Source of the DNA: Mobula birostris
Lineage: Eukaryota
Reading direction: 5' to 3'
DNA: 64,000 nucleotides
Assembly: GCF_030028105.1 (NCBI RefSeq)
Contig: NC_092387.1
Coordinates: 52,585,590-52,649,589, forward strand
Shown: piece by piece, positions 12,875 through 64,000 of the stretch
Numbering within the stretch: the first letter of the stretch is position 1
How the letters are laid out: every line of letters starts with the position of its first letter
Position numbers and translations under genes: made by a program
The notes under the pieces: generated by a model
Told to the model about the DNA's origin: nothing
Database searches by the model: none
The model's input: only the letters and a program-made list of their open reading frames with translations

Positions 12875-13380
12875 ATACACAGAATGCTGGAGGAACTCAG
12901 CAGGTCTGGCAACATCAATGGAAAGGTGCAAAGAGTTGACATTTTGGGCCAAGGCCCTTCATCAGTGCTGGAAAGGCAGGGGAAAGGAGCCAGAATCAGA
13001 AGGTACGGGGAGGGGAAGGAATACAAGCTGGAAGGTGATAAGGGAAGCCAGGCAATGTGGAAGGTAGGTGGGTGGGGGAGGGGCACGAAGTGAGTAGCTG
13101 GGTGGTGATAGGTGGAAAATGTAAAGGGTTGAAGAAGGTGGTCTCCAATAGGAGAAGAGAGTGGACCATGGGAGAAAGGCAGGAAGGAGGGGTGTTAGAG
13201 GGAGGTGTAAGACAAGTGAGGAGAAACGGTAAGAGAGGAGCCAGAATGGAAAAAAATAGAGAAGGGGGAGGGGGAGAAATTACCATGCTGCTAGATTGGA
13301 GGCTACCCAGACTGATTATGAAGCGTTGCTCTTTCGACCTGAGTTTGGCCTCATCGTGGCAGTGCTTGAAGGTTGACATG
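12875..13380 (-). mobile_element. PLE 3' end with degenerate hammerhead
   Basis: EAKLRSKEQRFIISLGSLQ (PLE ORF end) and agagttgacattttgggccaaggcccttcatcag. Confidence 0.75.
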
Positions 13381-16891: not shown

Positions 16892-17270
16892 AGAGCAACA
16901 AACACAAAATGCTAAAAGAATTCAGCAAGTCGGGTAGCATCTCTACAGAGCAATGAACAGTCGATGTTTCAGGCTGAACCCCTTCATCAGGACTGGAAAG
17001 GAAGGGGGAGAAGGTAGAGGGAAGGGAAGGACTACAGGATGGCAAGTGACAGGTGAGACCTGGTGAGGGGTAAGGCAGGTGAGTGGGGCGGAAGCTGGGA
17101 GGTGTCAGGTGGAATAGGTAAAAGGCCGAAGGAGGAGTCCGATTGGAGGGGAAAGGGTGCCATGGAAGAAAGGGAAGGAGGAGGAGGGTACCAGAGGGAG
17201 GAAATGGACAGGTGAGGAGAAGAGAGCAGGGAAGAGAGGAGCCTGAATGGGGAATGGAAAGAGTGCAGTG
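16892..17270 (-). mobile_element. PLE terminal repeat with hammerhead (16958-16995)
   Basis: Minus strand cagtc-ctgatga-a-ggggttcagcct-gaaa-catc-gactg. Confidence 0.8.
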
Positions 17271-32858: not shown

Positions 32859-33808
32859 TAGTTACTTAATTGTACAAAAACATGACTCCCACAAGTAGGA
32901 AGCTTAGCTCCACAGGGATGGTCTATAGAACTTAGGTCCTCATATTTCTCTCAACCCACCCCCCCTCCACCCTACATCCCTTCCCTCACCCTCCCACTTT
33001 CGATTGAGGCACAACGGACTGAAGAAGCAGGAAATCTGAAGCTGGAGTAACTCAGCAGGTCAGGCAACTTCAAAAAAAAAAAGATCAACAATCAGCACTT
33101 TGGGTCTCAACCAGAAGTGTCCACTGTTGATTTCCCTCCACGCATGCTGCCTGACCTGTTTAATTCCTTCACGTGTTGCACTAACTTAGATTCTTCATTC
33201 TCCTCTTATTTCTGTTCATCTTCAAACCCTCATCTCTTTTCTTATATCTCTCTCTCTTTCGGTCTACACCCGTGTCCGTCTCCCCACCTTCCATCTCTTT
33301 CTTGTAGGCAGACATGCCTTTGGATCCCGTACCCACTGAAAGCTCAGTAACTCAGACAACACCACATTCCTGCAGTACTGCATCTTACATATTCACTCCC
33401 TCCACCAATATGACTGCAAAGCACATCAGCCACTGCCTCTTCAACAGCACACCCCAGACCCGCAATAAGTCATACACTTGGGAATGCAACCCCCTCTGCA
33501 TTCCACTCTAGGCCTCAAAATGTCCTAATGTGCACATAATTTGGTCACAACCGTAGGTTCAGTACTCTTGATAGCGTAACTATGACTCCCTCACCGCACG
33601 GACGGCAAAGAACCAGGAAGGAAGCAAACTACCACCACCAGCATCACCTCTGCAATTAGAAATGTAAAACAAATGCTGGTCTAGCTAGAGATAACACTCA
33701 CAAATGTATAAATAAATGCGCCAGGATAGAAGATGTAGAATTGTAGATGTTAGATTGCGATGTAGTGTAGGAGTTTTTCTTGTAGTTTAGCTTTCCTATG
33801 GTCGCTTC

Positions 33809-44706: not shown

Positions 44707-44859
44707 NNNNNNNNNNNNNNNNNNNNNNNNNNNNNNNNNNNNNNNNNNNNNNNNNNNNNNNNNNNNNNNNNNNNNNNNNNNNNNNNNNNNNNNNNNNNNN
44801 NNNNNNNNNNNNNNNNNNNNNNNNNNNNNNNNNNNNNNNNNNNNNNNNNNNNNNNNNNN
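44707..44859. other. Assembly gap (N run)
   Basis: Run of n. Confidence 0.99.
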
Positions 44860-45669
44860 GTGGTTAAGGCATTGGACTAGCAACCTGAAGGTCGTGAGTT
44901 CGAGCCCCAGCCGAGGCAACATGTGCTGTGTCCTTGACCAAGGCACTTAATCGCACATTGCTCTGCGACGACACTGGGTGCCAAGCGGCACGGGTCCTAA
45001 TGCCCTTCCCTTGGACAACATTGGTGTCATGGAGAGGGGAGACTTGCAGTGTAGTTGACTCCTAACCTTCTTTTAAGTATGGTGGTACGGCAGTTAGTGT
45101 CATCAGCCTGGATTCTACCTGTCTGTGTAGAGTTGGCACCTTCTCCCAAACTTTGTGGTTACCCCCAAATGCTCTCTTTTCCTCCCACTTCTCATGGATG
45201 TGTTGGATGTTGGGTTAATTGTCTGCTGTAACTTTGCATCAGAATATGTATTGACACTTGCAGGCTTCTCTCAGCACATCCTCAGATTGTGTTGATTGTT
45301 AACACAAACAAAGCACTACTTGTTCCAATGTACCTGTAATCTAATCTAATCTAACCTAATACATAAATCTAAAATAATCATTCTGGTGAACCTTTTCTGC
45401 ACCCCCTCCAAAACCTCCACATCCTTCCTGTACCGGGGTGAACAGAACGGTATACAATACTCCAAGTGTGGCCTAACCAAACTTTTATGCAGCTACCCAC
45501 TTTTGTACTCAGTACTCCAACCAGTGAAAGCAAGTGTGCTCTATGCTTTCCTTACCAACCTATTTACTTCTGTATCACAAATATCACAACCTATCACAAA
45601 CTGGAAACACATGCCCAAATTTTGAAGAAGCCCAGCAGCACCATCTGCAGTTATCGTACACAAGACCGT

Positions 45670-48080: not shown

Positions 48081-48845
48081 ATATACAGTACTGTTGTTGC
48101 TATGTTACTTTATCAATACTCCATCTAAATTTAGATTTTGCAAACCAGACTTGCAACTCTGTAGCCTTTCTCAGAAGATTTCCAGATCATCTGCAGCTAT
48201 TATTTCAGGACAAGAAACAACTATTTTGTGTGCACAGTAACAAACAAAGAATGCTGAAAGAACTCAGAAGGTCAGGCAGCATCCATGGAAAGGAATAAAG
48301 AGTTGACCTTTTGTGTACATAACTCTGAATTTCCAGCACCTGCAGAACCTGTTGTGCGTCTACTTTGTGTGCACGGAAAGCTCCCACAAACAGCAATACG
48401 ACCATATCCAAATAATCAGATATGTAGATAGGGATTGAAGGATAAATATTGGCCCCAGAACACTGGAGAATAATGCCTGCTCTTCTAAAATTCATGCTGT
48501 GGCATCCTCTATATCAGCTTCTACGGCCTCAGCTTAAAACCAGTCTCCTCTAAATTGACTCCATCTACATTTCCCGCTGCCTCAGGAAAGCAGCCAACAT
48601 AACTAAGGACCCCTCCGATTCTGGTCATTCTCTCTTCTCCCCCCTTCCATCGGGCAGAAGATACAAAGGATTGAGGGCACGTATCACCAAACTTGGGGCT
48701 AGTTTCTACCCGACTGTTATCAGACACTTGATCAAATCACTGATACATTAAAGATAAAATTCCTGATCTTCCAATCTACATTTTTGTGGCCTTTGCACTT
48801 TATTTGCTTACCTGTACTGGACAGTTTGTTGTAGCTGCTACTTCA

Positions 48846-49706: not shown

Positions 49707-50615
49707 ATTATTCAGCATTCCCTTTTCTTTTATTACCTCGGTGTATTTATATGTGGTACAATTTGATATGGTAGGCTCATAGCACAGAAGTTAGCACAAC
49801 TGATTTACACACCAACAATCACTGATTGGGGTTTGATTTATACCAGTGTCTAGAAGAAGTTTGTATGTTTTCCCCATGACTGTGTGGGTTTCCTCTGGGT
49901 GCTCGGGTTTCCTCCCTTATTCCAAAGGCATATAGGTTAGGGTTAGTAAATTGTAGGCATGCTACTAGAAGCATGGTGACACTTGTGGTCTGTACCCAGC
50001 ATAATCCTCGCCGATTTGATTTGACGCAACAGATGCACTCCATTGTTTGAATGTACAGGTGACAAATAAAGTGTATCTTTTCTCTTTGATCTGACTGGAT
50101 GGCACTGAAAAAAAAAAGCTTTTCAATGTATCTCAGTAACCATATAACCATATAACAATTACAGCACGGAAACAGGCCATCTCGGCCTTTCTAGTCTGTA
50201 CCGAACGCTTACTCTCACCTAGTCCCATCTACCTGCACTCAGCCCATAACCCTCAATTCCTTTCCTGTCCATATACCTATCCAATTTTTTTTTTAAATAA
50301 CAAAATTGAACCTGCCTCAACCACTTCTACTGGAAGCTCATGCCACACAGCTACCACTCTCTGAGTAAAGATGTTCCCCCTCGTGTTACCCCTAAACTTT
50401 TGCCCCTTAACTCTCAACTCATGTCCTCTTGTTTGACTCTCCCCTACTCTCAATGGAAAAAGCCTATCCACATCAACTCTATCTATCCCCCTCATAATTT
50501 TAAATATTTCTATCAAGTCCCCCCTCAACCTTCTATGCTCCAAAGAATAAAGACCTAACTTGTTCAGCCTTTCTCTGTAACTTAGGTGCTGAAACCCAGA
50601 TAACATTCTAGTAAA

Positions 50616-52336
50616 CATAAGGAATTCTGCAGATGCTGGAAATTCAAGCAACACACATCAAAGTTGCTGGTGAACGCAGCAGGCTGGGCAGCATCTCTAG
50701 GAAGGGGTACAGTCGATGTTTCAGGCTGAGACCCTTCGCCAGGACTAACTGAAGGAAGAGCTAGTAAGAGATTTGAAAGTGGGAGGGGGAGGGGGAGATT
50801 CAAAATGATAGAAGACAGGAGGGGGAGGGATGGAGCCAAGAGCTGGGCAGGTGATTGGCAAAAGGGATATGAGAGGATCATGGGACAGGAGGTCCGGGAA
50901 GAAGGAAAAGGGGGAGGGGGGGAAAACACAGAGGATGGGCACCCCCCCTTTCTAGACCATTTCTGACACCTCCCTCCCCTTTCTAGACCATTTCTGACAC
51001 CTCCCTCCCCTTTCTAGATCTTTCTGTCTCTATCTCTGGAGACAGCTTATCTACTGATATCTACTATAAGCCTACTGACTCTCACAGCTATCTGGACTAT
51101 TCCTCTTCTCACCTGTCTCTTGCAAAAACGCCATCCCCTACTGACAATTTCTCCGTCTCCGCCGCATCTGTTCTCAGGATGAGGCTTTTCATTCTAGGAC
51201 GAGGGAGGTGCCTTCCTTTTTTAAAGAAAGGGGCTTCCCTTCCTCCACCATCAACTCTGCTCTCAAACGCATCTCCCCCATTTCACACACATCTGCTCTC
51301 ACTCCATCCTCCCGTCACCCCACTAGGAATAGGGTTCCCCTGGTCCTCACCTACCACTCCACCAGCCTGCGGGTCCAACATATTATTCTCCGTAACTTCC
51401 GCCACCTCCAACGGGATCCCACCACTAAGCATATCTTTCCCTCCCCACTTCCCTTTGCTTTCCGCAGGGATCGCTCCCTATGCGACTCCCTTGTCCATTC
51501 GTCCCCCCCATCCCTCCCCACTGATCTCCCTCCTGGCACTTATCCTTGTAAGCGGAACAAGTGCTACAGATGCCCTTACACTTCCTCCCTTACCACCATT
51601 CAGGGCCCCAGACAGTCCTTCCAGGTGAGGCGACACTGCACCTGTGAGTCGGCTGGTGTGATATACTGTGTCCAGTGCTTCCGATGTGTCCTTCTATATA
51701 TTGGCGAGACCCGACACAGACTGGAAGATCGTTTTGCTGAACACCTATGCTCTGTCCGCCAGAGAAAGTAGGATCTCCTAGTGGCCACACATTTTATTTC
51801 CACATCCCATTCCCATTCTGACATGTCTATCCACGGCCTCCTCTACTGTAAAAATGAAGCCACTCTCAGGTTGGAGGAACACCTTATATTCTGTCTGGGT
51901 AGCCTCCAACCTGAAGGCATGAACATTGACTTCTCTAACTTCCGCTAATGTCCCACCTCCCCCTCGTACCCCATCCGTAATTTATACACACATTCTTTCT
52001 CTCACTCTCCTTTTTCTCCCTCTGTCCCTCTGACTATACCCCTTGCCCATCCTCAGGGTTCCCCCCCGCCTTTTCCTTCTCCTTGGGCCTCCCGTCCAAC
52101 GATCCTCTCATATCCCTTTTGCCAATCACCTGTCCAGCTCTTGGCTCCATCTCTCCCCCTCCTGTCTTCTCCTATCATTTTGGATCTCCCCCTCCCCCTC
52201 CCACTTTCAAATCTCTTACTAGCTCTTCCTTCAGTTAATCCTGACGAAGGGTCTCGGCCTGAAATGTCGACTGTACCTCTTCCTAGAGATGCTGCCTGGC
52301 CTGCTGCGTTCACCAGCAATTTTGATGTGTGTTGCT
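50616..52336 (+). mobile_element. 5'-truncated Penelope-like element (Neptune-type) with inverted terminal repeat
   Basis: 15-bp TSD taacattctagtaaa (50601-50615 / 52337-52351); inverted repeat 50616-50940 vs 52020-52336; ORF remnant between. Confidence 0.92.
51005..51948 (+). pseudogene. PLE ORF remnant: RT C-terminus, Cys-rich linker, GIY-YIG endonuclease
   Basis: PFLDL..YYKPTDSHSYLDY; CKRNKCYRC; VIYCVQC..C..LYIGET..RL..RF.EH; LQPEGMN; carries stops and frameshifts. Confidence 0.9.
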
Positions 52337-53989
52337 TAACATTCTAGTAAATTTCCTCTGTACTCTCTCTATTTTGTTGACATCTTTCCTATAATTCGGT
52401 GACCAGAACTGTACACAATACTCCAAATTTGGCCTCACCAATGCCTTGTACAATTTTAATATTACATCCCAACTCCTATACTCAATGCTCTGATTTATAA
52501 AGGCCAGCATACCAAAAGCTTTCTTCACCACCCTATCCACATGAGATTCCACCTTCAGGGAACTATGCACCATTATTCCTAGATCCCTCTGTTCTACTGC
52601 ATTCTTCAATGCCCTACCGTTTACCATGTATGTCCTATTTTGATTAGTCCTACCAAAATGTAGCACCTCACACTTATCAGCAAGTGAAAAAAAATAAACC
52701 AGTATCAATCTCACCCAGAAAAAGAGTCCTTCTGATAGTGCAGCCCTCCCTCAAGTCTTGAGTGGGATGTGGTCACATAGCCTTCAAATTCAGAAACAAA
52801 AGTACTCCCTGCTTAGCCACAACTGACACAGAAACACAAGTCACAAGTCCTTTTCAATATCTTTCTGTTTTTGGAAGTGGAGGAAGACAACTTACCAATT
52901 AGCTGTCACCATTTGGAAATATTACACAAAAGCTCAAAGTTGACCTAATGTAGACTTGACCCTACCCAGAGCAGACTTAATGAGCCGAAAGGCCTAATTC
53001 TTCCCCGATGTCTTATGGACCCAAATATGTGGACGCTAACCCTCAATTTATGTCACTCGAGTCACTGACAAAGAGGATGGTTCTCCTGCCTAGTTTCTCC
53101 TGTTCGCTAACCCACATTTCCTGCCATTGCCTGTATGTTCTCCCCACGCCCACGTGGGTTTCCTCCGGGTACTCCAGTTTCCTCCTACAGTCCAGAGAAG
53201 TACCAGCGGTAGGTTAATTAGTCATTGTAAATTTCCCATGACTAGGCCACAGTTAAATCAGGAGTTGCTGGTTGACGCAGCTAGTCCACACTCCACCTCA
53301 ATAGATAAATAAACAATACATCCATTCAGGAATAATGCTTCAGTAAATACCTGTTACTTGAAATAAGGAAATATTAATGTACTTGAGGTTTGCAAATCTT
53401 TGGAAATCCCCACCCCATGAATAACCTACCCCTCCTCCCACATCCATTCCCACCCCTATTTATTCAACAAAATCAATGCAATTATATTTGAGCCAAATGA
53501 ACAAGGTGAAGTGTTCACATCAGAGCCATAAGTTGCCATGGTAACTGAAATAATAGAACTACTCCGTTTCCAATCAGAAGTAACTGATCCCTTGATCACA
53601 ATACATTGGGCTGCACAGAAACTGGGTGAACAATGGGGGCAGTGTTCATAACTACTCCTTATTGCCAGGAGAGAAAGTTCAATGGTGATTGAAGAATTGA
53701 ATTACTGATATGGGCTTCCCATCAGATCAGTGATTTAGAGTGCATTGAAATAATTTAATGAAATTAAAGGAAGTTTACTGGAACTGAGGCAATGGAGAAT
53801 CAGGTCAGGTAACTGACAGCTACAGGCAAAAGGTTCCTGGAAGCACAAAAATTCAGACAGCAACTGCAGGGGGAGAAAGACAGATAATGTTTCAGTTTAA
53901 CACACGAGATGATGGAAGAACTCTGTGGGTCAGGCAGTATCTATGGAGCGAAATTGCAGGCCGAGTCGGTGGTAAGGAAGGTAAATTAC

Positions 53990-55384: not shown

Positions 55385-55792
55385 CTTTGCTATTGCTCAT
55401 TCTGGTTCCCCTCACATCCCTTCTCTTCATCTCATCTGCCCAACACCTCCCCCTGGCCCCCCCTCCTCCTTCCCTTTCTCCCATGATCCACTCTACTCTC
55501 CTATCAGATTCTTTCTTCTTCAGCCCTTTACCTTTTTCCACCTGTCACTTGTCAGCTTCTTACTTCACACCCCTTCCCCATCCACCCACCTTCTCCTCCA
55601 CAAGGTTTCACGTATCACCTGCCAGCCTGTATTCCTTCCCCTCCCCTACTTTCTTATACTGGTTTCTTCCCCCTTCCTTTCCAGTCTGAAAGAAGGGACT
55701 CAGCCTGAAACATCGATTGTTTATTCCTCTCCAGAGATGATGCCTGACCACCATCTATGGAGTTCCTGCACCATTTTGTATGTGTTGCTCTC
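55385..55792 (+). mobile_element. PLE terminal repeat with degenerate hammerhead
   Basis: CT-rich repeat then ccagtctgaaagaagggactcagcctgaaacatcgattg. Confidence 0.7.
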
Positions 55793-57803: not shown

Positions 57804-58704
57804 AAAAGTTGCTGGTGAACGCAGCAGGACAGGCAGCATCTCTTAGAAGAGGTGCAGTCGACGCTTCGGGCCGAGAGCCTTCGTCGGGACTAACTGAAAG
57901 AAGAGCTAGTCAGAGATTTGAAAGTGTGAGGGGGAGGGGGAGATCCAAAATGATAGGAGAAGACAGGAGGGGGAGGGATGGAGCCAAGAGCTGGACAGGT
58001 GATTGGCAAAAGGGATGTGAGAAGATCATGGGACGGGAGGCCTAGGGAGAAAGAAAGGGGGGAGAGCCCAGAGGATGGGCAATAACGGATGGGGTACGAG
58101 GGGGAGGTGGGGCATTAATGGAAGTTAGAGAAGTCAATGTTCATGCCATCACGTTGGAGGCTACCCAGACGGAATATAAGGTGTTGTTCCTCCAACCTGA
58201 GTGTGGCTTCATCTTTACAATAGAGGAGGCCGTGGATAGACATATCAGAATAGGAATGGGACGTGGAATTAAAATGTGTGGCCACTGGGAGATCCTGCTT
58301 TCTCTGGCGGACAGAGCGTTGACTTCTCTAACTTCCATTAATGCCCAACTCCCCCTCATACCCCATCCGTTATTGCCCATCCTCTGGGCTTCCCCCCTCT
58401 CCCTTTCTTTCTCCCTAGGCCTCCCGTCCCATGATCCTCTCATATCCCTTTTGCCAATCACCTGTCCAGCTCTTGGCTTCATCCCTCCCCCTCCTGTCTT
58501 CTCCTATCATTTTGGATCTCCCCCTCCCCCTCACACTTTCAAATCTCTTACTAGCTCTTCTTTCAGTTAGTCCTGACGAAGGGTCTCGGCCCGAAACGTC
58601 GACTGTACCTCTTCCTAGAGATGCTGCCTGGCCTGCTGCGTTCACCAGCAACTTTTACATGTGTTGCTTGAAATTCCAGCATCTGCAGATTTCCTCGTGT
58701 TGGC
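57804..58704. mobile_element. Fold-back (inverted) PLE insertion
   Basis: Arms ~57805-58140 and 58320-58655 are reverse complements; TSD atgacta(c/t)gtttat 57790-57803 / 58705-58718. Confidence 0.9.
58569..58604 (+). ncRNA. Minimal type I hammerhead ribozyme (intact core)
   Basis: Stem I agtc/gact; CUGACGA plus extra A; stem II gggt-ctcg-gccc; GAAA; palindromic ACGU in place of stem III; GUC cleavage triplet at 58598-58600. Confidence 0.8.
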
Positions 58705-61202
58705 ATGACTATGTTTATTATTGTCCTCAGCAGTACAACTCATCACAAATGTAAGTACTAAAACAATTGAACTTCACACTCATCATGTAATAAACTTGAT
58801 CAAATCCTGCTCCTCTAAGGTGAAGACTTGTTCTGGCCATCTTATTTTCAACTTTGAACTTTGAACCTTAACCTACCTGCCTCAACCTAAGAATTAATCT
58901 TCTCTGTTTCTGTGTTGCACAAGGTAAAAATAATTTACTTAAGTAATTAATGATGCAATGTCCCACTCAACAGAATGTTCGAACACATTCAGTTTTACTT
59001 GGGCTTTTTTTGCATGTCATTTGAGAATAACAACTTCACATTGAAGTTAACTATGTCCAAGTTAAGTTGAACCAGTCTCTGTGAGTGCATGATACAAGAT
59101 AGTCCCTCCTGTAACCTATTGCCAGGCAGTCATTTACAGTGAAATTAAAAAGAAACAGAATGCAAAAAATACTCACCAGATCAAGTAGCATCTATGGAGG
59201 CAGAAGATCAATGAAGTTCATTAAAGCTGATCAAAGCTAGGAGACAAAAGAGGTCCTAATCAAGGGTAATTGCAGAAAGGCGGAAAGAACAGGTCTGCAT
59301 TCAGTTGGAAGACAAGAGAATAAAGGGAAAGAGGTAACAGCACAAAACGAGGAGGTGAGAGGACGAGTTAAGGAAATAAATGTTGAACCTAAGGAAGGGC
59401 AAATCGTGTGAGAATTACTATCAGCATCCACTGCGTAATACTGAAACCATACATTCTCATAACAGGAAATGCATCAGGGTGTCACCCTGCAATTTAAAGG
59501 AACGTTTTACATATAAACAATAGAAGGAGGTGCAGAAGCCTCAGGACACACATCACCAGGTCTGGAACAGTTATTACCTCTCAACCTTCAGCCTTCTGGA
59601 CCAGAGGGGATAACTTCACTCAATACTGAACTGCTTCCTCATCCTATGGACTCACTTTCAAGGACTCTTCATCTCACGTTCTCGATACGTATTGCTTATT
59701 TATTTATTATGTTCATTTTGTTCTCTTTTTCTATTTGCACAGTTTTGTTTGTCCATAAGGTTGTGTGTGTTTTTTTTTCATTGCTTCCTTTGTGTTTCTT
59801 TGTATTTACTGAGAGTACCTGCAAGAAAATGAATCTCAGTGTGATATATAGTATACTTTGAACTTTGAGGGTGCAGATAAGCCCACAGTGTCAGTCCTAA
59901 TCTACCTGATTCCACAACCCATGGACTTACTTTCAAGAACACTGCAACTCATATTCTCAGTTATTTATTTATTATTATTGTTATTGTTGTTTTTTGTATT
60001 TGCATAGTTTTGTCTTTTTTTGCACATTGGGTGTTTGTGTGTCTTTGTGGTGTGTGCTTACATTGATTCTAATGTATTTCTTTGTTCTACTGTGAATGTC
60101 CATAAGAAAATGAATCTCAGGGTGGCATATGGTGACATACAGTATGTACTTTAATTATAACTTTATTTTGATCTTTGAAAACATTTTCTAAAGTGCCAAA
60201 CACCACAAATATAGCTTTTGCCCAGATTAAGTGTTCAGATCCTATATAGACTATTTTGTTGATTGCTTGTGATCTGCACCTTTGTATCCAGTGGTTTCTA
60301 GCTCTCACCTGTAAATAAACTGAAGAGATCAACAGATTGCTGGAGGAACTCAGCAGGTCAGGCTGCACATCTGGAAGCAGAGGAGTGGTTGATGTTTTGG
60401 GTCAAGATACTGCATCAGGCCATGTTTACTTGCCCCGGATCCCAGCATCTGCAGTCTTTTGGATCTCCATGGGAATGCAATAATTCTATTACGAGGCAAT
60501 TATTTAATAATTTAAAAAACACCTGAGATTGCAGATGCTGGGATCTAGAACTACAAATAGTCTGCTGGAGGAACTCAGCGAGTCAGGCAGCATTTGCCTG
60601 AAGGACTGTTCGAGCGTGTGGGTTGGTGGAAGGGAGGAAAGCAGCTTCTTTTGCTGTTGTTGGTTTGTTGCTTATTGTATTCTATATTATTGTTGTTCTG
60701 CTGAGTATTGAGGGCATGCTATGTTGGGCGCCAGAGTGTGTGCTGACACTTACGGGCTGGCCCCAACACATCCTGTTGGTTGTTAATGCAAATAACGCAT
60801 TTCCTTGTAGGCCTCAATGGATGTGTGATAAATAAATGTGAATTTGAGACTGTGTGGGTAAAGCAATTGTCGATGTTGTGGCTCAAAACCCTACGTCAGG
60901 CTCTGAAACATCAACAGTTCCTTTCCCCCTACAAATGCTGCTTGACTTGCTGTGTTCTTCCTGTAGAGAATATAATTGTAACATTTGATAGCTAAAACCC
61001 AGAACATTTTTGATAACCTCCTACATCCTTTCCCCTATGAGCCAATGTCAGGGATTCAATGCATGAATCCAAAATATTTTAATACATTTGGGTGAGGGAA
61101 TGGGTATAAAATGCCATAGTTTAAATACATTCATTATCAAAGTATGTGCGCAGCATACGATCCTGAGGCTTGCCTTCCCCACAGACAGCCATGAAACAGG
61201 CC

Positions 61203-61450: not shown

Positions 61451-62465
61451 CAAAAAAAAAAAACCATGAAACCAAGAAAACCATGGAACCCATTCAAGGA
61501 AAACATCAGTCCCCACCCATGCGTGAAAAAAATACAGAAATGGCAACAAAAAAAAACCAAGTGAAAAACACTACATAAACCACAAAATCAAAAGAATTCA
61601 GGCATAATTCAGTTCAGCTCAAGCTCAGTGTTCGTTATCTGCAGGCCACCGCAATTCAATGTTATCCAAACTAGCAACAGAAAAAGGTGTGACCAGAAAC
61701 CAAAAACACATCATAACGTGAACTACAGAGTACAACCCACAAACCATCCTCTAATAGCATCGAGGGAGAGGGAGCAAGTCTATTCGAACATAGGGACTCT
61801 CCATCAGGAGCTGTGAGCAAGATGGAGAGAAAGACTGTCACACGCAAACACCTTCCACCAACAGCAGCGACTGACAGGCTAGTAGATGGCGCTGAACACT
61901 CACTCGCCTCGATGTTTTCAGCCTTCCTCAATGCTTTAATCAGTGAGAAATGGGGTTGATCACGGGCTTGCACCCCTTCTCCAAGCACTTGGTCCCCAGG
62001 CCACTCAACTCCTGGAACCCTCTCGGAGACAGCAAAGCACCAGATCACTCAATCAGCCTGGTAACACACCATCAAACTGGAGACCACAGGCTCCAACAGT
62101 ACCACAACCATGTTTGAAAGAAAACAAAGATGTAAAAGAAGTGACCATCTAAAGGATACCGCTCTTGGTCACCTTGATTGCTGGTGTCATCTTCACCTCG
62201 ATATCAGATTTACTTTTCCAGGTTTTGTTCTGCTAGATAACATGGACTCAAAGAACAAACTACGGAATGTGTCCCGTCAAACATTCTGAACCAGGAGCTT
62301 CAAAAGAAACCTGGCAGAGCTCTCACATTGCAAACAAGTGATCACGTAATACGAATGGACTACTCTCTCCAATACAAGGAGTGAGAAAGTGCGATGAGCT
62401 CTGTGTTTCTTTACAGTAATTGATTTTATTTTCTGGACTGCTGCGAACCCCATTTAAACTACACT

Positions 62466-62551
62466 CACAACACACTGGAGGAACTCAGCAGGTCGGGCAG
62501 CATCCGTGGAAATGATCAGTCAACGTTTTGGGCTGGAACCCTTCGTCAGGA
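62466..62551 (-). mobile_element. 86-bp hammerhead-plus-tail insertion
   Basis: 17-bp TSD cccatttaaactacact (62449-62465 / 62552-62568); minus strand (g)tcctgacgaagggttccagcccaaaacgttgactg. Confidence 0.85.
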
Positions 62552-62894
62552 CCCATTTAAACTACACTTTGCAATTCCTTGTACAAGGATTTTGTTGATA
62601 AATTATAGCCTTGTTTGGCAGAATGCTATTTCCCTGGTTGGTGGAATATTCTTTTCAGCATCATTTAATGCTACCTTTTTAGCAAAATATAAAACCCCAC
62701 CCTCACTCATTATTCCTCAGTTACAGTATTTGGGATCGTAATGGTGTGTGCATCAAAGGTCATCCCCTCATCTGTCTGGTTACATAACTCCTGCCCCATC
62801 TGTCTAAGTGTGAGTGGTTCCCCCATCAACCACATCAGACATCTCAGAATCCACAAAACTGAAATAGAAACCAGTCATCTTATTCCCCAGGGAC

Positions 62895-63142: not shown

Positions 63143-63415
63143 GTCTTGTTTCATGTTTCATTATAGCTGTGAAAAAGCCCAAATTTTACTATGAATTAAT
63201 CATCTGAGAGTAAGGGTCTAACATGTTTCTTACTTAACCAATCCACACTGCCTCATGTTTAATTGTGTTTAATTGATGTTTAATTAACATTTTTCTTGAG
63301 AATGCTGCTTATCGGATACTTGTGCCTGTGATGTTGCTGAAAGTAAGTTTTTCATCTCACCTGTCCGTAAATGTACTTGTGCATATGATAGTAAACTCAC
63401 CTTCAACTTTTGACT

Positions 63416-63660
63416 CAAACAACAGAAATTCTGCAGATGCTGGAAATTCAAGCAACACATATCAAAGTTGCTGGTGAACACAGCAGGCCAGGCAGCATCT
63501 CTAGGAAGAGGTGCAGTCGATGTTTCAGGCCGAGACCCTTCGTCAGGACTCTTCCTTCAGTTAGTCCTGACGAAGGGTCTCGGCCTGAAACGTCAACTGC
63601 ACCTCTTCCTAGAGATGCTGCCTGGCCTGCTGCGTTCACCAGCAACTTTGATGTGTGTTG
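63416..63660. mobile_element. Palindromic PLE mini-element with two hammerheads on opposite strands
   Basis: 15-bp TSD cttcaacttttgact (63401-63415 / 63661-63675); 101-bp arms 63450-63550 / 63563-63663. Confidence 0.9.
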
Positions 63661-64000
63661 CTTCAACTTTTGACTACACATTCTTGGAACAGATACACAT
63701 GACAACTTAGACTGAAAATTTCAAATTAAGAACTTCTCAGAATAGGTAACGTCAGCATTCCCATATTCCCGATTGGACCACGCACTGAGTGCATACAGCA
63801 GACTTACGAGTCACAACATTGGAGGGCCAGATCATTGCAAGGTACTCTCCTGCTCAACCTGAGAATTAGCCAGACCACTTAAAGCCTGGACTGTAAAAGG
63901 ACAAACATGGTGTACTACAAAGGTTATAGGGTGCCTCGATGCATCACAATGTCACAGAAAAAGGTCCTAAAGCCAACCAAGTCCTCATTGACCACTCGAA

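Follow-up and report, generated by a model that had tools for sequence, protein, structure and literature searches.

A 245-bp palindrome that carries a hammerhead ribozyme motif on each strand lies close to the right end of the window, the 64,000-nucleotide stretch of Mobula birostris DNA analyzed here. This fold-back (63401-63675) raises the question of whether it is a by-product of Penelope-like element (PLE) integration or one copy of a self-propagating family, and whether its two ribozymes could be active. We approached this question from the anatomy of the fold-back, from its relatives in the window, and from assembled contigs.

Anatomy of the fold-back and state of its hammerheads

The features of the fold-back are as follows.

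63401-63415, no strand: left target site duplication (TSD), 15 bp, with an exact copy at 63661-63675; organism B contigs (see below) stop at 63415
63416-63449, minus strand: PLE tail, 34 nt, confined to the left arm; the putative downstream start site of reverse transcription lies at its outer end, and the same tail is found in copies B and C (see below)
63450-63550, minus strand: left arm, a 5'-truncated pLTR copy of minus-strand sense starting at hammerhead stem I
63515-63550, minus strand: minimal type I hammerhead; the G at position 16.2 has become A (63521), which disrupts both the 15.2-16.2 pair and the ACGU palindrome
63549-63550, no strand: junction microhomology of 2 nt (CT), fitting both the antisense and the sense parent
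63551-63562, plus strand: 12-nt spacer, pLTR sequence directly upstream of the hammerhead, part of the right arm by its identity to copy B 52225-52236
63563-63598, plus strand: minimal type I hammerhead; the G-to-A change at 63595 turns the stem I pair adjoining the predicted cut (after 63594) into a C-A mismatch
63563-63660, plus strand: right arm, a tail-less pLTR copy of plus-strand sense
63661-63675, no strand: right TSD, 15 bp, exact copy of 63401-63415

The dimensions given in the first-pass annotation were all reproduced: two 101-nt arms (63450-63550 and 63563-63663) with four mismatches, three of them at CpG (63460/63653, 63480/63633, 63518/63595 and 63521/63592), a 12-nt center, and an exact 15-bp TSD enclosing 245 bp. 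The right arm as first stated shares 3 nt (CTT) with the right TSD. The predicted fold of the region has an energy of -211.4 kcal/mol (z -26.7), which none of 200 shuffles equaled. Two descriptions required correction. First, each arm had been read as a hammerhead plus a tail; each does carry the hammerhead motif, but the tail is present on the left arm only. Second, the 12-nt spacer has the length described, but it is parent pLTR sequence rather than a separate spacer. Each arm thereby contains sequence of its own, the tail on the left and the upstream extension on the right. The claimed absence of coding sequence agrees with the Pfam scan of 133 frames, in which the five stop-to-stop frames overlapping the fold-back gave no match; by the same scan, no host exon was found in 133 of the 751 stop-to-stop frames (52.8-64 kb, at least 42 aa), with one sub-threshold match.

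One CUGANGA...GAAA hammerhead core was located on each strand, as had been claimed, and each motif comprises stem I, CUGACGA, a short stem II and GAAA, plus a stem III of four bases (ACGU). The assignment rests on this motif and on published minimal hammerhead anatomy; over the window, Rfam gave no matches at gathering thresholds and no hammerhead at E-value thresholds either. Seven sub-threshold Rfam matches at the fold-back, to microRNA and sRNA models, were rejected because such models fit any long hairpin. Minimal type I anatomy is present in all six arms of the three young insertions described below, while only one of the six, the right arm of copy C, is fully intact. In the fold-back, a CpG mutation affects the core-adjacent pair of each hammerhead; at 63521, contigs of run X3 (see below) carry C in 2,145,727 of 2,468,957 of the summed depth.

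The idea that full arm pairing would switch the ribozyme off is in line with our predictions, in which stems I and II had a pairing probability of 0.0 on either strand, for the full RNA as well as the nascent one, and of no more than 0.02 when the arms were folded singly, under a monomer model without tertiary contacts. An escape by co-transcriptional cleavage had also been proposed and appears unlikely: the arms point outward, so that transcription of either strand reaches the sense hammerhead only after the antisense arm, and the sense ribozyme is therefore predicted to be zipped shut during transcription. Furthermore, minimal metazoan PLE hammerheads require a dimer, and cleavage by one motif on its own was undetectable, as described by Cervera and de la Peña (PMC4209133). 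Since dimer pairing needs the ACGU palindrome, the change at 63521 would impair it. Both motifs are thus mutated and predicted to be switched off. In vitro, hammerhead cleavage was dispensable for the insertion of a lizard PLE (PMC11167929).

The annotation had also likened the layout to that of viroid-like RNAs. A viroid-like or retrozyme-like replicon, in which opposite-strand hammerheads process rolling-circle intermediates, would account for the motif on each strand and for the rod-like fold. One sense ribozyme per strand, however, would allow at most one cut and no unit-length circle, and no tandem copy adjoins the fold-back. The stem predictions, the core-adjacent pair broken in both motifs and the inactivity reported for single minimal PLE hammerheads likewise argue against such a replicon. 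The comparison fails on the missing circle-forming pair of same-sense ribozymes and on the two mutated motifs, and we regard a replicon of this kind as extremely improbable. Pattern scans for the junction and the hammerheads returned 0 loci in metagenome and 0 in viral contigs, collections that need not contain ray DNA.

A separate observation concerns the sequence directly upstream of hammerhead stem I, where all six copies checked have a pyrimidine run ending in AG that resembles a 3' splice site (52205-52240, 58537-58572, 4770-4800, 16990-17025, 55655-55685 and 12960-12998). In Drosophila virilis Penelope, helix I coincides with the end of an intron, according to a passage of PMC4209133.

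Relatives of the fold-back in the window

The 64-kb window contains 31 pLTR pieces. The fold-back is the shortest of three insertions of the same family (245 bp, ~0.9 kb and 1.72 kb), and the two longer ones, also young, had been missed by the first-pass annotation.

50616-52336, plus strand: copy B, same family and layout, with a tail-bearing inverted arm (50616-50941) and a long sense arm with a broken ORF
51145-51768, plus strand: ORF piece of copy B, the stretch between reverse transcriptase and endonuclease, with the Cys-rich linker CKRNKCYRC and the start of GIY-YIG
57804-58704, no strand: copy C, same family, flipped, with a 14-bp TSD (1 mismatch)

The arms of the fold-back match copies B and C at 89-96%, with 94-96% identity to the end of copy B. 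Copy B has an exact 15-bp TSD (50601/52337). In copy C, the tail-less inverted arm (57804 to ~58317) extends into the endonuclease region, and the tail-bearing sense arm occupies ~58314-58704. The ORF piece of copy B shows 90% identity to a protein from Mobula hypostoma (E 3.7e-114), 78-85% identity to proteins from Hypanus sabinus, and 43% identity to P0018, which matches RVT_1 above the cut-off and GIY-YIG below it; P0035 matches GIY-YIG above the cut-off. The piece alone gave no Pfam match, and copy B does not contain the reverse transcriptase core. By sequence, the parent family of the fold-back classifies as an endonuclease-bearing PLE with the reverse transcriptase (RT) followed by GIY-YIG. 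Its linker is of the Cys-rich motif type that marks Neptune and also Nematis in the text of PMC8557442 and would point to one of these two clades; the label Neptune-like is taken from the linker.

Copy B interrupts a LINE-like ORF on the minus strand (50280-50615 and 52337-52750), whose flanking frames overlap at the TSD. We take this ORF to be CR1-like. Copy B has two direct repeats of 31 nt and a partial third at its junction (50942-51010), which look like repeated template slips. At 62449-62568, a tail-less pLTR piece in antisense stands alone, flanked by an exact 17-bp TSD and lacking an inverted partner.

In all three young insertions, a tail-bearing and a tail-less copy are joined by their 5' ends between TSDs. 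The tail ends at +126 to +131 from the hammerhead core, and the tail-less copies end at +83 to +95. The upstream limits vary: the arms begin ~4 and 16-18 nt upstream of the core in the fold-back, ~0.26 kb and 0.43 kb upstream in copy C (by copy C's own sequence), and ~0.2 kb and >1.2 kb upstream in copy B, so that all three junctions differ. The joints show a 2-nt microhomology in the fold-back, ~3 nt in copy C, and the 31-nt slips in copy B. The annotation had proposed comparing junctions as the deciding check; the three young insertions indeed differ, and a search allowing up to 5 mismatches in 30 nt found the junction of the fold-back at a single place in the window. An inverted pLTR, one tail and a TSD is the published pattern of PLE insertion: inverted pLTRs in head-to-head order with a TSD, one of them with a 31-bp tail, are described in PMC3846280, and an inverted 5'-truncated copy together with a tail of 30-40 bp at one of the two ends in PMC8557442. 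In truncated PLEs, minimal hammerheads are also described in pairs, on opposite strands and separated by 100-700 bp (PMC4209133).

Five older loci had been described as fold-backs with the same layout, which brings the junctions compared to 8 loci.

1546-1710, no strand: older pLTR pair, head to head; the left arm is short and bears the tail, and a complete hammerhead is absent
6698-6862, no strand: older pLTR pair, head to head; the right arm is the shorter one and bears the tail, and a complete hammerhead is absent
33043-33171, no strand: decayed head-to-head pair; scores of 39 and 46, where shuffles reached at most 25; tail side not resolved
48233-48355, no strand: older head-to-head pair; tail on the shorter right arm, ~17-bp imperfect TSD
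60332-60454, no strand: older pair, head to head; decayed hammerhead on the tail-less arm, right arm reduced to the tail

These are head-to-head pLTR pairs, weakly so for the 33045 locus and for the short arm of the 60325 locus (60439-60454, score 27 against a shuffle maximum of 25). The two-hammerhead layout did not hold: a core on both strands was found in none of the five, and a relaxed one-strand match in one.

Among the eight pairs examined, the tail-bearing arm stops sooner in all seven that could be resolved, the exception being 33045 (two-sided sign test, 2 x 0.5^7 = 0.016); the count combines three young and four older pairs, the latter diverged and with one arm near noise. This asymmetry fits two primings on one RNA, because a trailing polymerase could not pass the leading one if both used the same RNA. 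Neither this arm-length rule nor a twin-priming model for PLEs was found in the literature searched, whose scope did not include the subscription PLE-structure papers.

Nine pieces begin between ~18 nt upstream and 6 nt downstream of the hammerhead core (894, 4246, 6781, 19007, 34053, 60419, 62552, 63550 and 63549), and eight reach further upstream. A preferred 5' stop near the hammerhead, if real, would let short two-hammerhead fold-backs recur without being mobile. Two further older pairs of opposite-strand pLTRs (3938-4380 and 60516-60959) lie ~200-300 nt apart with unrelated DNA between them, the former with a tail on both arms; they are either separate insertions or captured spacers. Runs of N at ~2762-2925 and ~44720-44860 mark assembly gaps, the first of which lies between 30-nt inverted arms at 2536 and 2926.

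Empty site and copy number in assembled contigs

Assembled contigs of 24 runs were compared with the locus; 20 matched part of it, and four runs (X3, X5, X6 and X9) were aligned to 63207-63566. X3 derives from organism A, and X6 and X9 derive from one sample of organism B; the depth of a single locus is 3-3.7 in X3 and 8-10 in X6 and X9. In each organism B run, one contig covers the left flank with 5 substitutions and 2 gaps, follows the locus to the last base of the TSD (63415), and then continues for 754 and 619 unlike letters, respectively. The site of the fold-back is empty in organism B, a relative, and the insertion is young. The left flank itself holds a low-copy repeat remnant (63315-63398) with a depth of up to 3,700 in X3, which ends just before the TSD.

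The outer end of the tail is a sharp boundary throughout the family, with 321 contigs at 63416 and 212 at 63417 in X3 continuing into unrelated AT-rich flanks. Contigs running over either end of the aligned stretch numbered 70 of 29,808 (X3), 129 of 63,708 (X6) and 130 of 58,684, one of each being the flank contig. On the junction side, the contigs are consequently capped at 69 of 29,808 in X3 and 128 of 63,708 in X6, or about 200 copy-equivalents in organism A. Beyond the junction, the depth of the far bin equals that of 179-220 single loci in organism A and 545-562 in organism B. These depths amount to 0.03-0.07% of the tail-bin depth, a ratio that is indicative since the tail bin sums overlapping contigs. 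In X5, the far-bin signal of 465.3 is fully matched by two contigs that carry other short junctions (depths 412.6 and 63.3), so the far bin is not specific for the junction of the fold-back. We attribute the far-bin depth to short parent-sense pieces and other short junctions, as seen in the RNA-like run X5 only. Among the 15 joints listed of 53, none had more than two contigs in a run; a contig with the exact junction would overrun the end of the aligned stretch and would not appear as a joint, so that this list does not bear on the junction of the fold-back. None of the contig pieces listed covers the aligned stretch from end to end. A large family with this junction is unlikely, while the fold-back could be one of up to a few hundred copies.

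These counts bear on the possibility that the fold-back belongs to a small self-propagating non-autonomous family, in which the PLE protein would use a fold-back transcript as template and copy the unit in full. The contig bounds leave room for such a family, and the pLTR alone is reported to suffice for mobilization in trans (PMC3846280). A joint from 63546 to 63461 also recurs in organism B at 9 to 26 times the single-locus depth. In the window, however, the junction is unique and the insertions form a continuous size series with different junctions, and the far-bin depth is small and not junction-specific. The template would be a rod with a predicted -204 kcal/mol that buries the reverse transcription start region, and copying would have to stop exactly at the tail-less end. 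We consider this family quite unlikely, and still somewhat less likely its extended form, a mobile hairpin RNA with a ribozyme on both strands that is re-inserted whole by the Penelope protein, reaches up to a few hundred copies in rays and doubles as a dsRNA trigger against its parent. A mobile unit, if true, would be a new kind of non-autonomous PLE derivative.

This recurrent joint (63546 to 63461, 4 letters between) reaches depths of 92 and 210 in the organism B runs, ~9-fold and ~26-fold that of a single locus, and may reflect either a short fold-back that recurs or a retrozyme-like tandem unit of 90 nt. In X5, contigs with depths of 413 and 63 join 63451 and 63454 to 63548, linking a tail-only arm to a sense arm that starts ~33 nt upstream of the core at a shared TTCAA, which suggests a microhomology-favored junction.

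The first-pass annotation had further proposed the hairpin as a substrate for dsRNA processing or ADAR. Structurally this is plausible, as a 101-bp near-perfect hairpin is predicted, and the hairpin might now serve the host as dsRNA, small RNAs or A-to-I edited RNA that help to silence the family. A contig of X5, a run guessed to be RNA although none of the 24 runs is recorded as such, covers the left flank to 63417 at a depth of 61.6, and antisense small RNAs against Penelope are reported in a rotifer in a passage of PMC3846280. Moreover, T-to-C changes, which correspond to A-to-G on the sense strand of the element, exceed those of X3 DNA in the pooled family contigs of X5 at three of the four informative sites listed (11.4 vs 1.0%, 3.9 vs 0.6% and 4.7 vs 0.5%). 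The fourth site is reversed (11.2% in X5 vs 15.4% in X3), the shares are pooled over the family with contigs from a different individual, and organism B DNA already reaches 6.8% at 63512. The excess is a weak, family-level hint of A-to-I editing, and nothing links it to the fold-back locus. The insertion is also young and absent from the relative, giving no sign of conservation. A present use by the host therefore seems unlikely to us.

Origin of the fold-back and comparison with known systems

Taken together, the fold-back very probably represents the head-to-head, 5'-truncated ends of an endonuclease-bearing PLE, likely generated by two primings in one insertion event and likely dead on arrival. 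Its anatomy, parent family, TSD, empty site, junction microhomology and mutated hammerheads are direct observations. Between the two origins that the annotation had left side by side, the by-product of PLE integration is supported by the differing junctions and the published layout, while the self-propagating family found no positive support and has a bounded copy number.

We propose the following mechanism, which is comparable to the twin priming of L1. The GIY-YIG endonuclease would nick both target strands ~15 nt apart, and each nick would prime reverse transcription of the element RNA. One cDNA would start at the tail end (+130 from the hammerhead core) and the other ~35 nt upstream (+93 to +96); both would stop early near the 5' edge of the hammerhead and be joined via the 2-nt microhomology. 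If both started on one RNA, the trailing, tail-bearing polymerase could not pass the leading one. Read-through RNA from either strand would then form the 101-bp hairpin that blocks the ribozyme. A PLE protein was found to cut and extend both target strands in vitro, with two reverse transcription start sites bracketing the tail, in PMC11167929; these data were obtained with a Poseidon-clade lizard element, not with the ray family.

Alternatively, the palindrome may owe its origin to an antisense template that primed itself or to a single cDNA that snapped back, with no second priming at a nick, as in the model of Arkhipova et al. (2013); the Discussion of PMC3846280 explains head-to-head inversions in this way, and the 2-nt microhomology and 12-nt loop at the junction would be suitable. 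Snap-back of one cDNA, however, makes one arm a sub-copy of the other, and each arm has unique sequence in all three young insertions, which is at odds with one arm being a plain copy of its partner. Snap-back would also need loops of ~175 nt in copy C and >1 kb in copy B. We hold this route to be rather unlikely, though the least so of the alternatives; it would alter the mechanism only, and the verdict of an insertion by-product stands. A mixed route, snap-back of the tail-less cDNA combined with a second priming, predicts the same asymmetry as two primings on one RNA, and the present data do not separate the two.

As a locus, the fold-back is of little importance, being one of very many truncated PLE insertions. 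Its value lies in a clean record of PLE insertion chemistry, which passages of the cited PLE papers call unresolved. The arm-length rule (seven of seven pairs) makes the model of two primings on one RNA countable in ray assemblies and testable in the existing in vitro system.

The known systems compared share different parts of this layout; no report of hammerheads or PLE fold-backs in sharks or rays was found in the literature searched. The Avsunviroidae and hammerhead viroid-like RNAs (PMC9608096) also have a hammerhead motif per polarity and a rod-like fold. They are described there as circles of both polarities that replicate by rolling circle with ribozymes active during transcription, whereas the fold-back is an inverted duplication integrated in DNA, in which the sense ribozyme is made after its complement and is not predicted to fold during transcription. 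Animal non-LTR retrozymes (bioRxiv 10.64898/2026.07.22.740005) are likewise short, non-coding and derived from a PLE pLTR with a type I hammerhead, but they are head-to-tail tandems with at least 2 complete same-sense ribozymes; the fold-back is one inverted pair with a TSD, with one sense motif per strand and no adjoining tandem unit.

The Anolis Poseidon element PAc studied in vitro (PMC11167929) shares two ends separated by the tail, an AT-rich target, and ends ~90-130 nt downstream of the hammerhead, while the fold-back comes from another clade and another host; the main text consulted gives no account of the origin of inverted products. The truncated PLEs of Schistosoma mansoni (PMC4209133) share close, opposite-strand minimal type I hammerheads with a palindromic 15.2-16.2, no loop 3, and an extra nucleotide before stem II; in the fold-back the cores are ~20 nt apart rather than 100-700 bp, and both carry CpG mutations. 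Finally, endonuclease-bearing (EN+) PLE insertions (PMC3846280 and PMC8557442) share head-to-head inverted 5'-truncated copies, a 30-40-nt tail at one end and a TSD, and furthermore a pLTR hammerhead, RT then GIY-YIG in the relatives of the parent, and microhomology at the 5' junction. The fold-back differs in its arms of only ~100-135 nt without an ORF body, and the TSD is 14-15 bp in the ray family against 8-10 bp in the rotifer examples given. With RT and GIY-YIG in its parent, a pLTR hammerhead, an inverted 5'-truncated copy, and a tail at one end with a TSD, the fold-back has the defining features of EN+ PLE insertions and is an ordinary young member at the short end of a size series.
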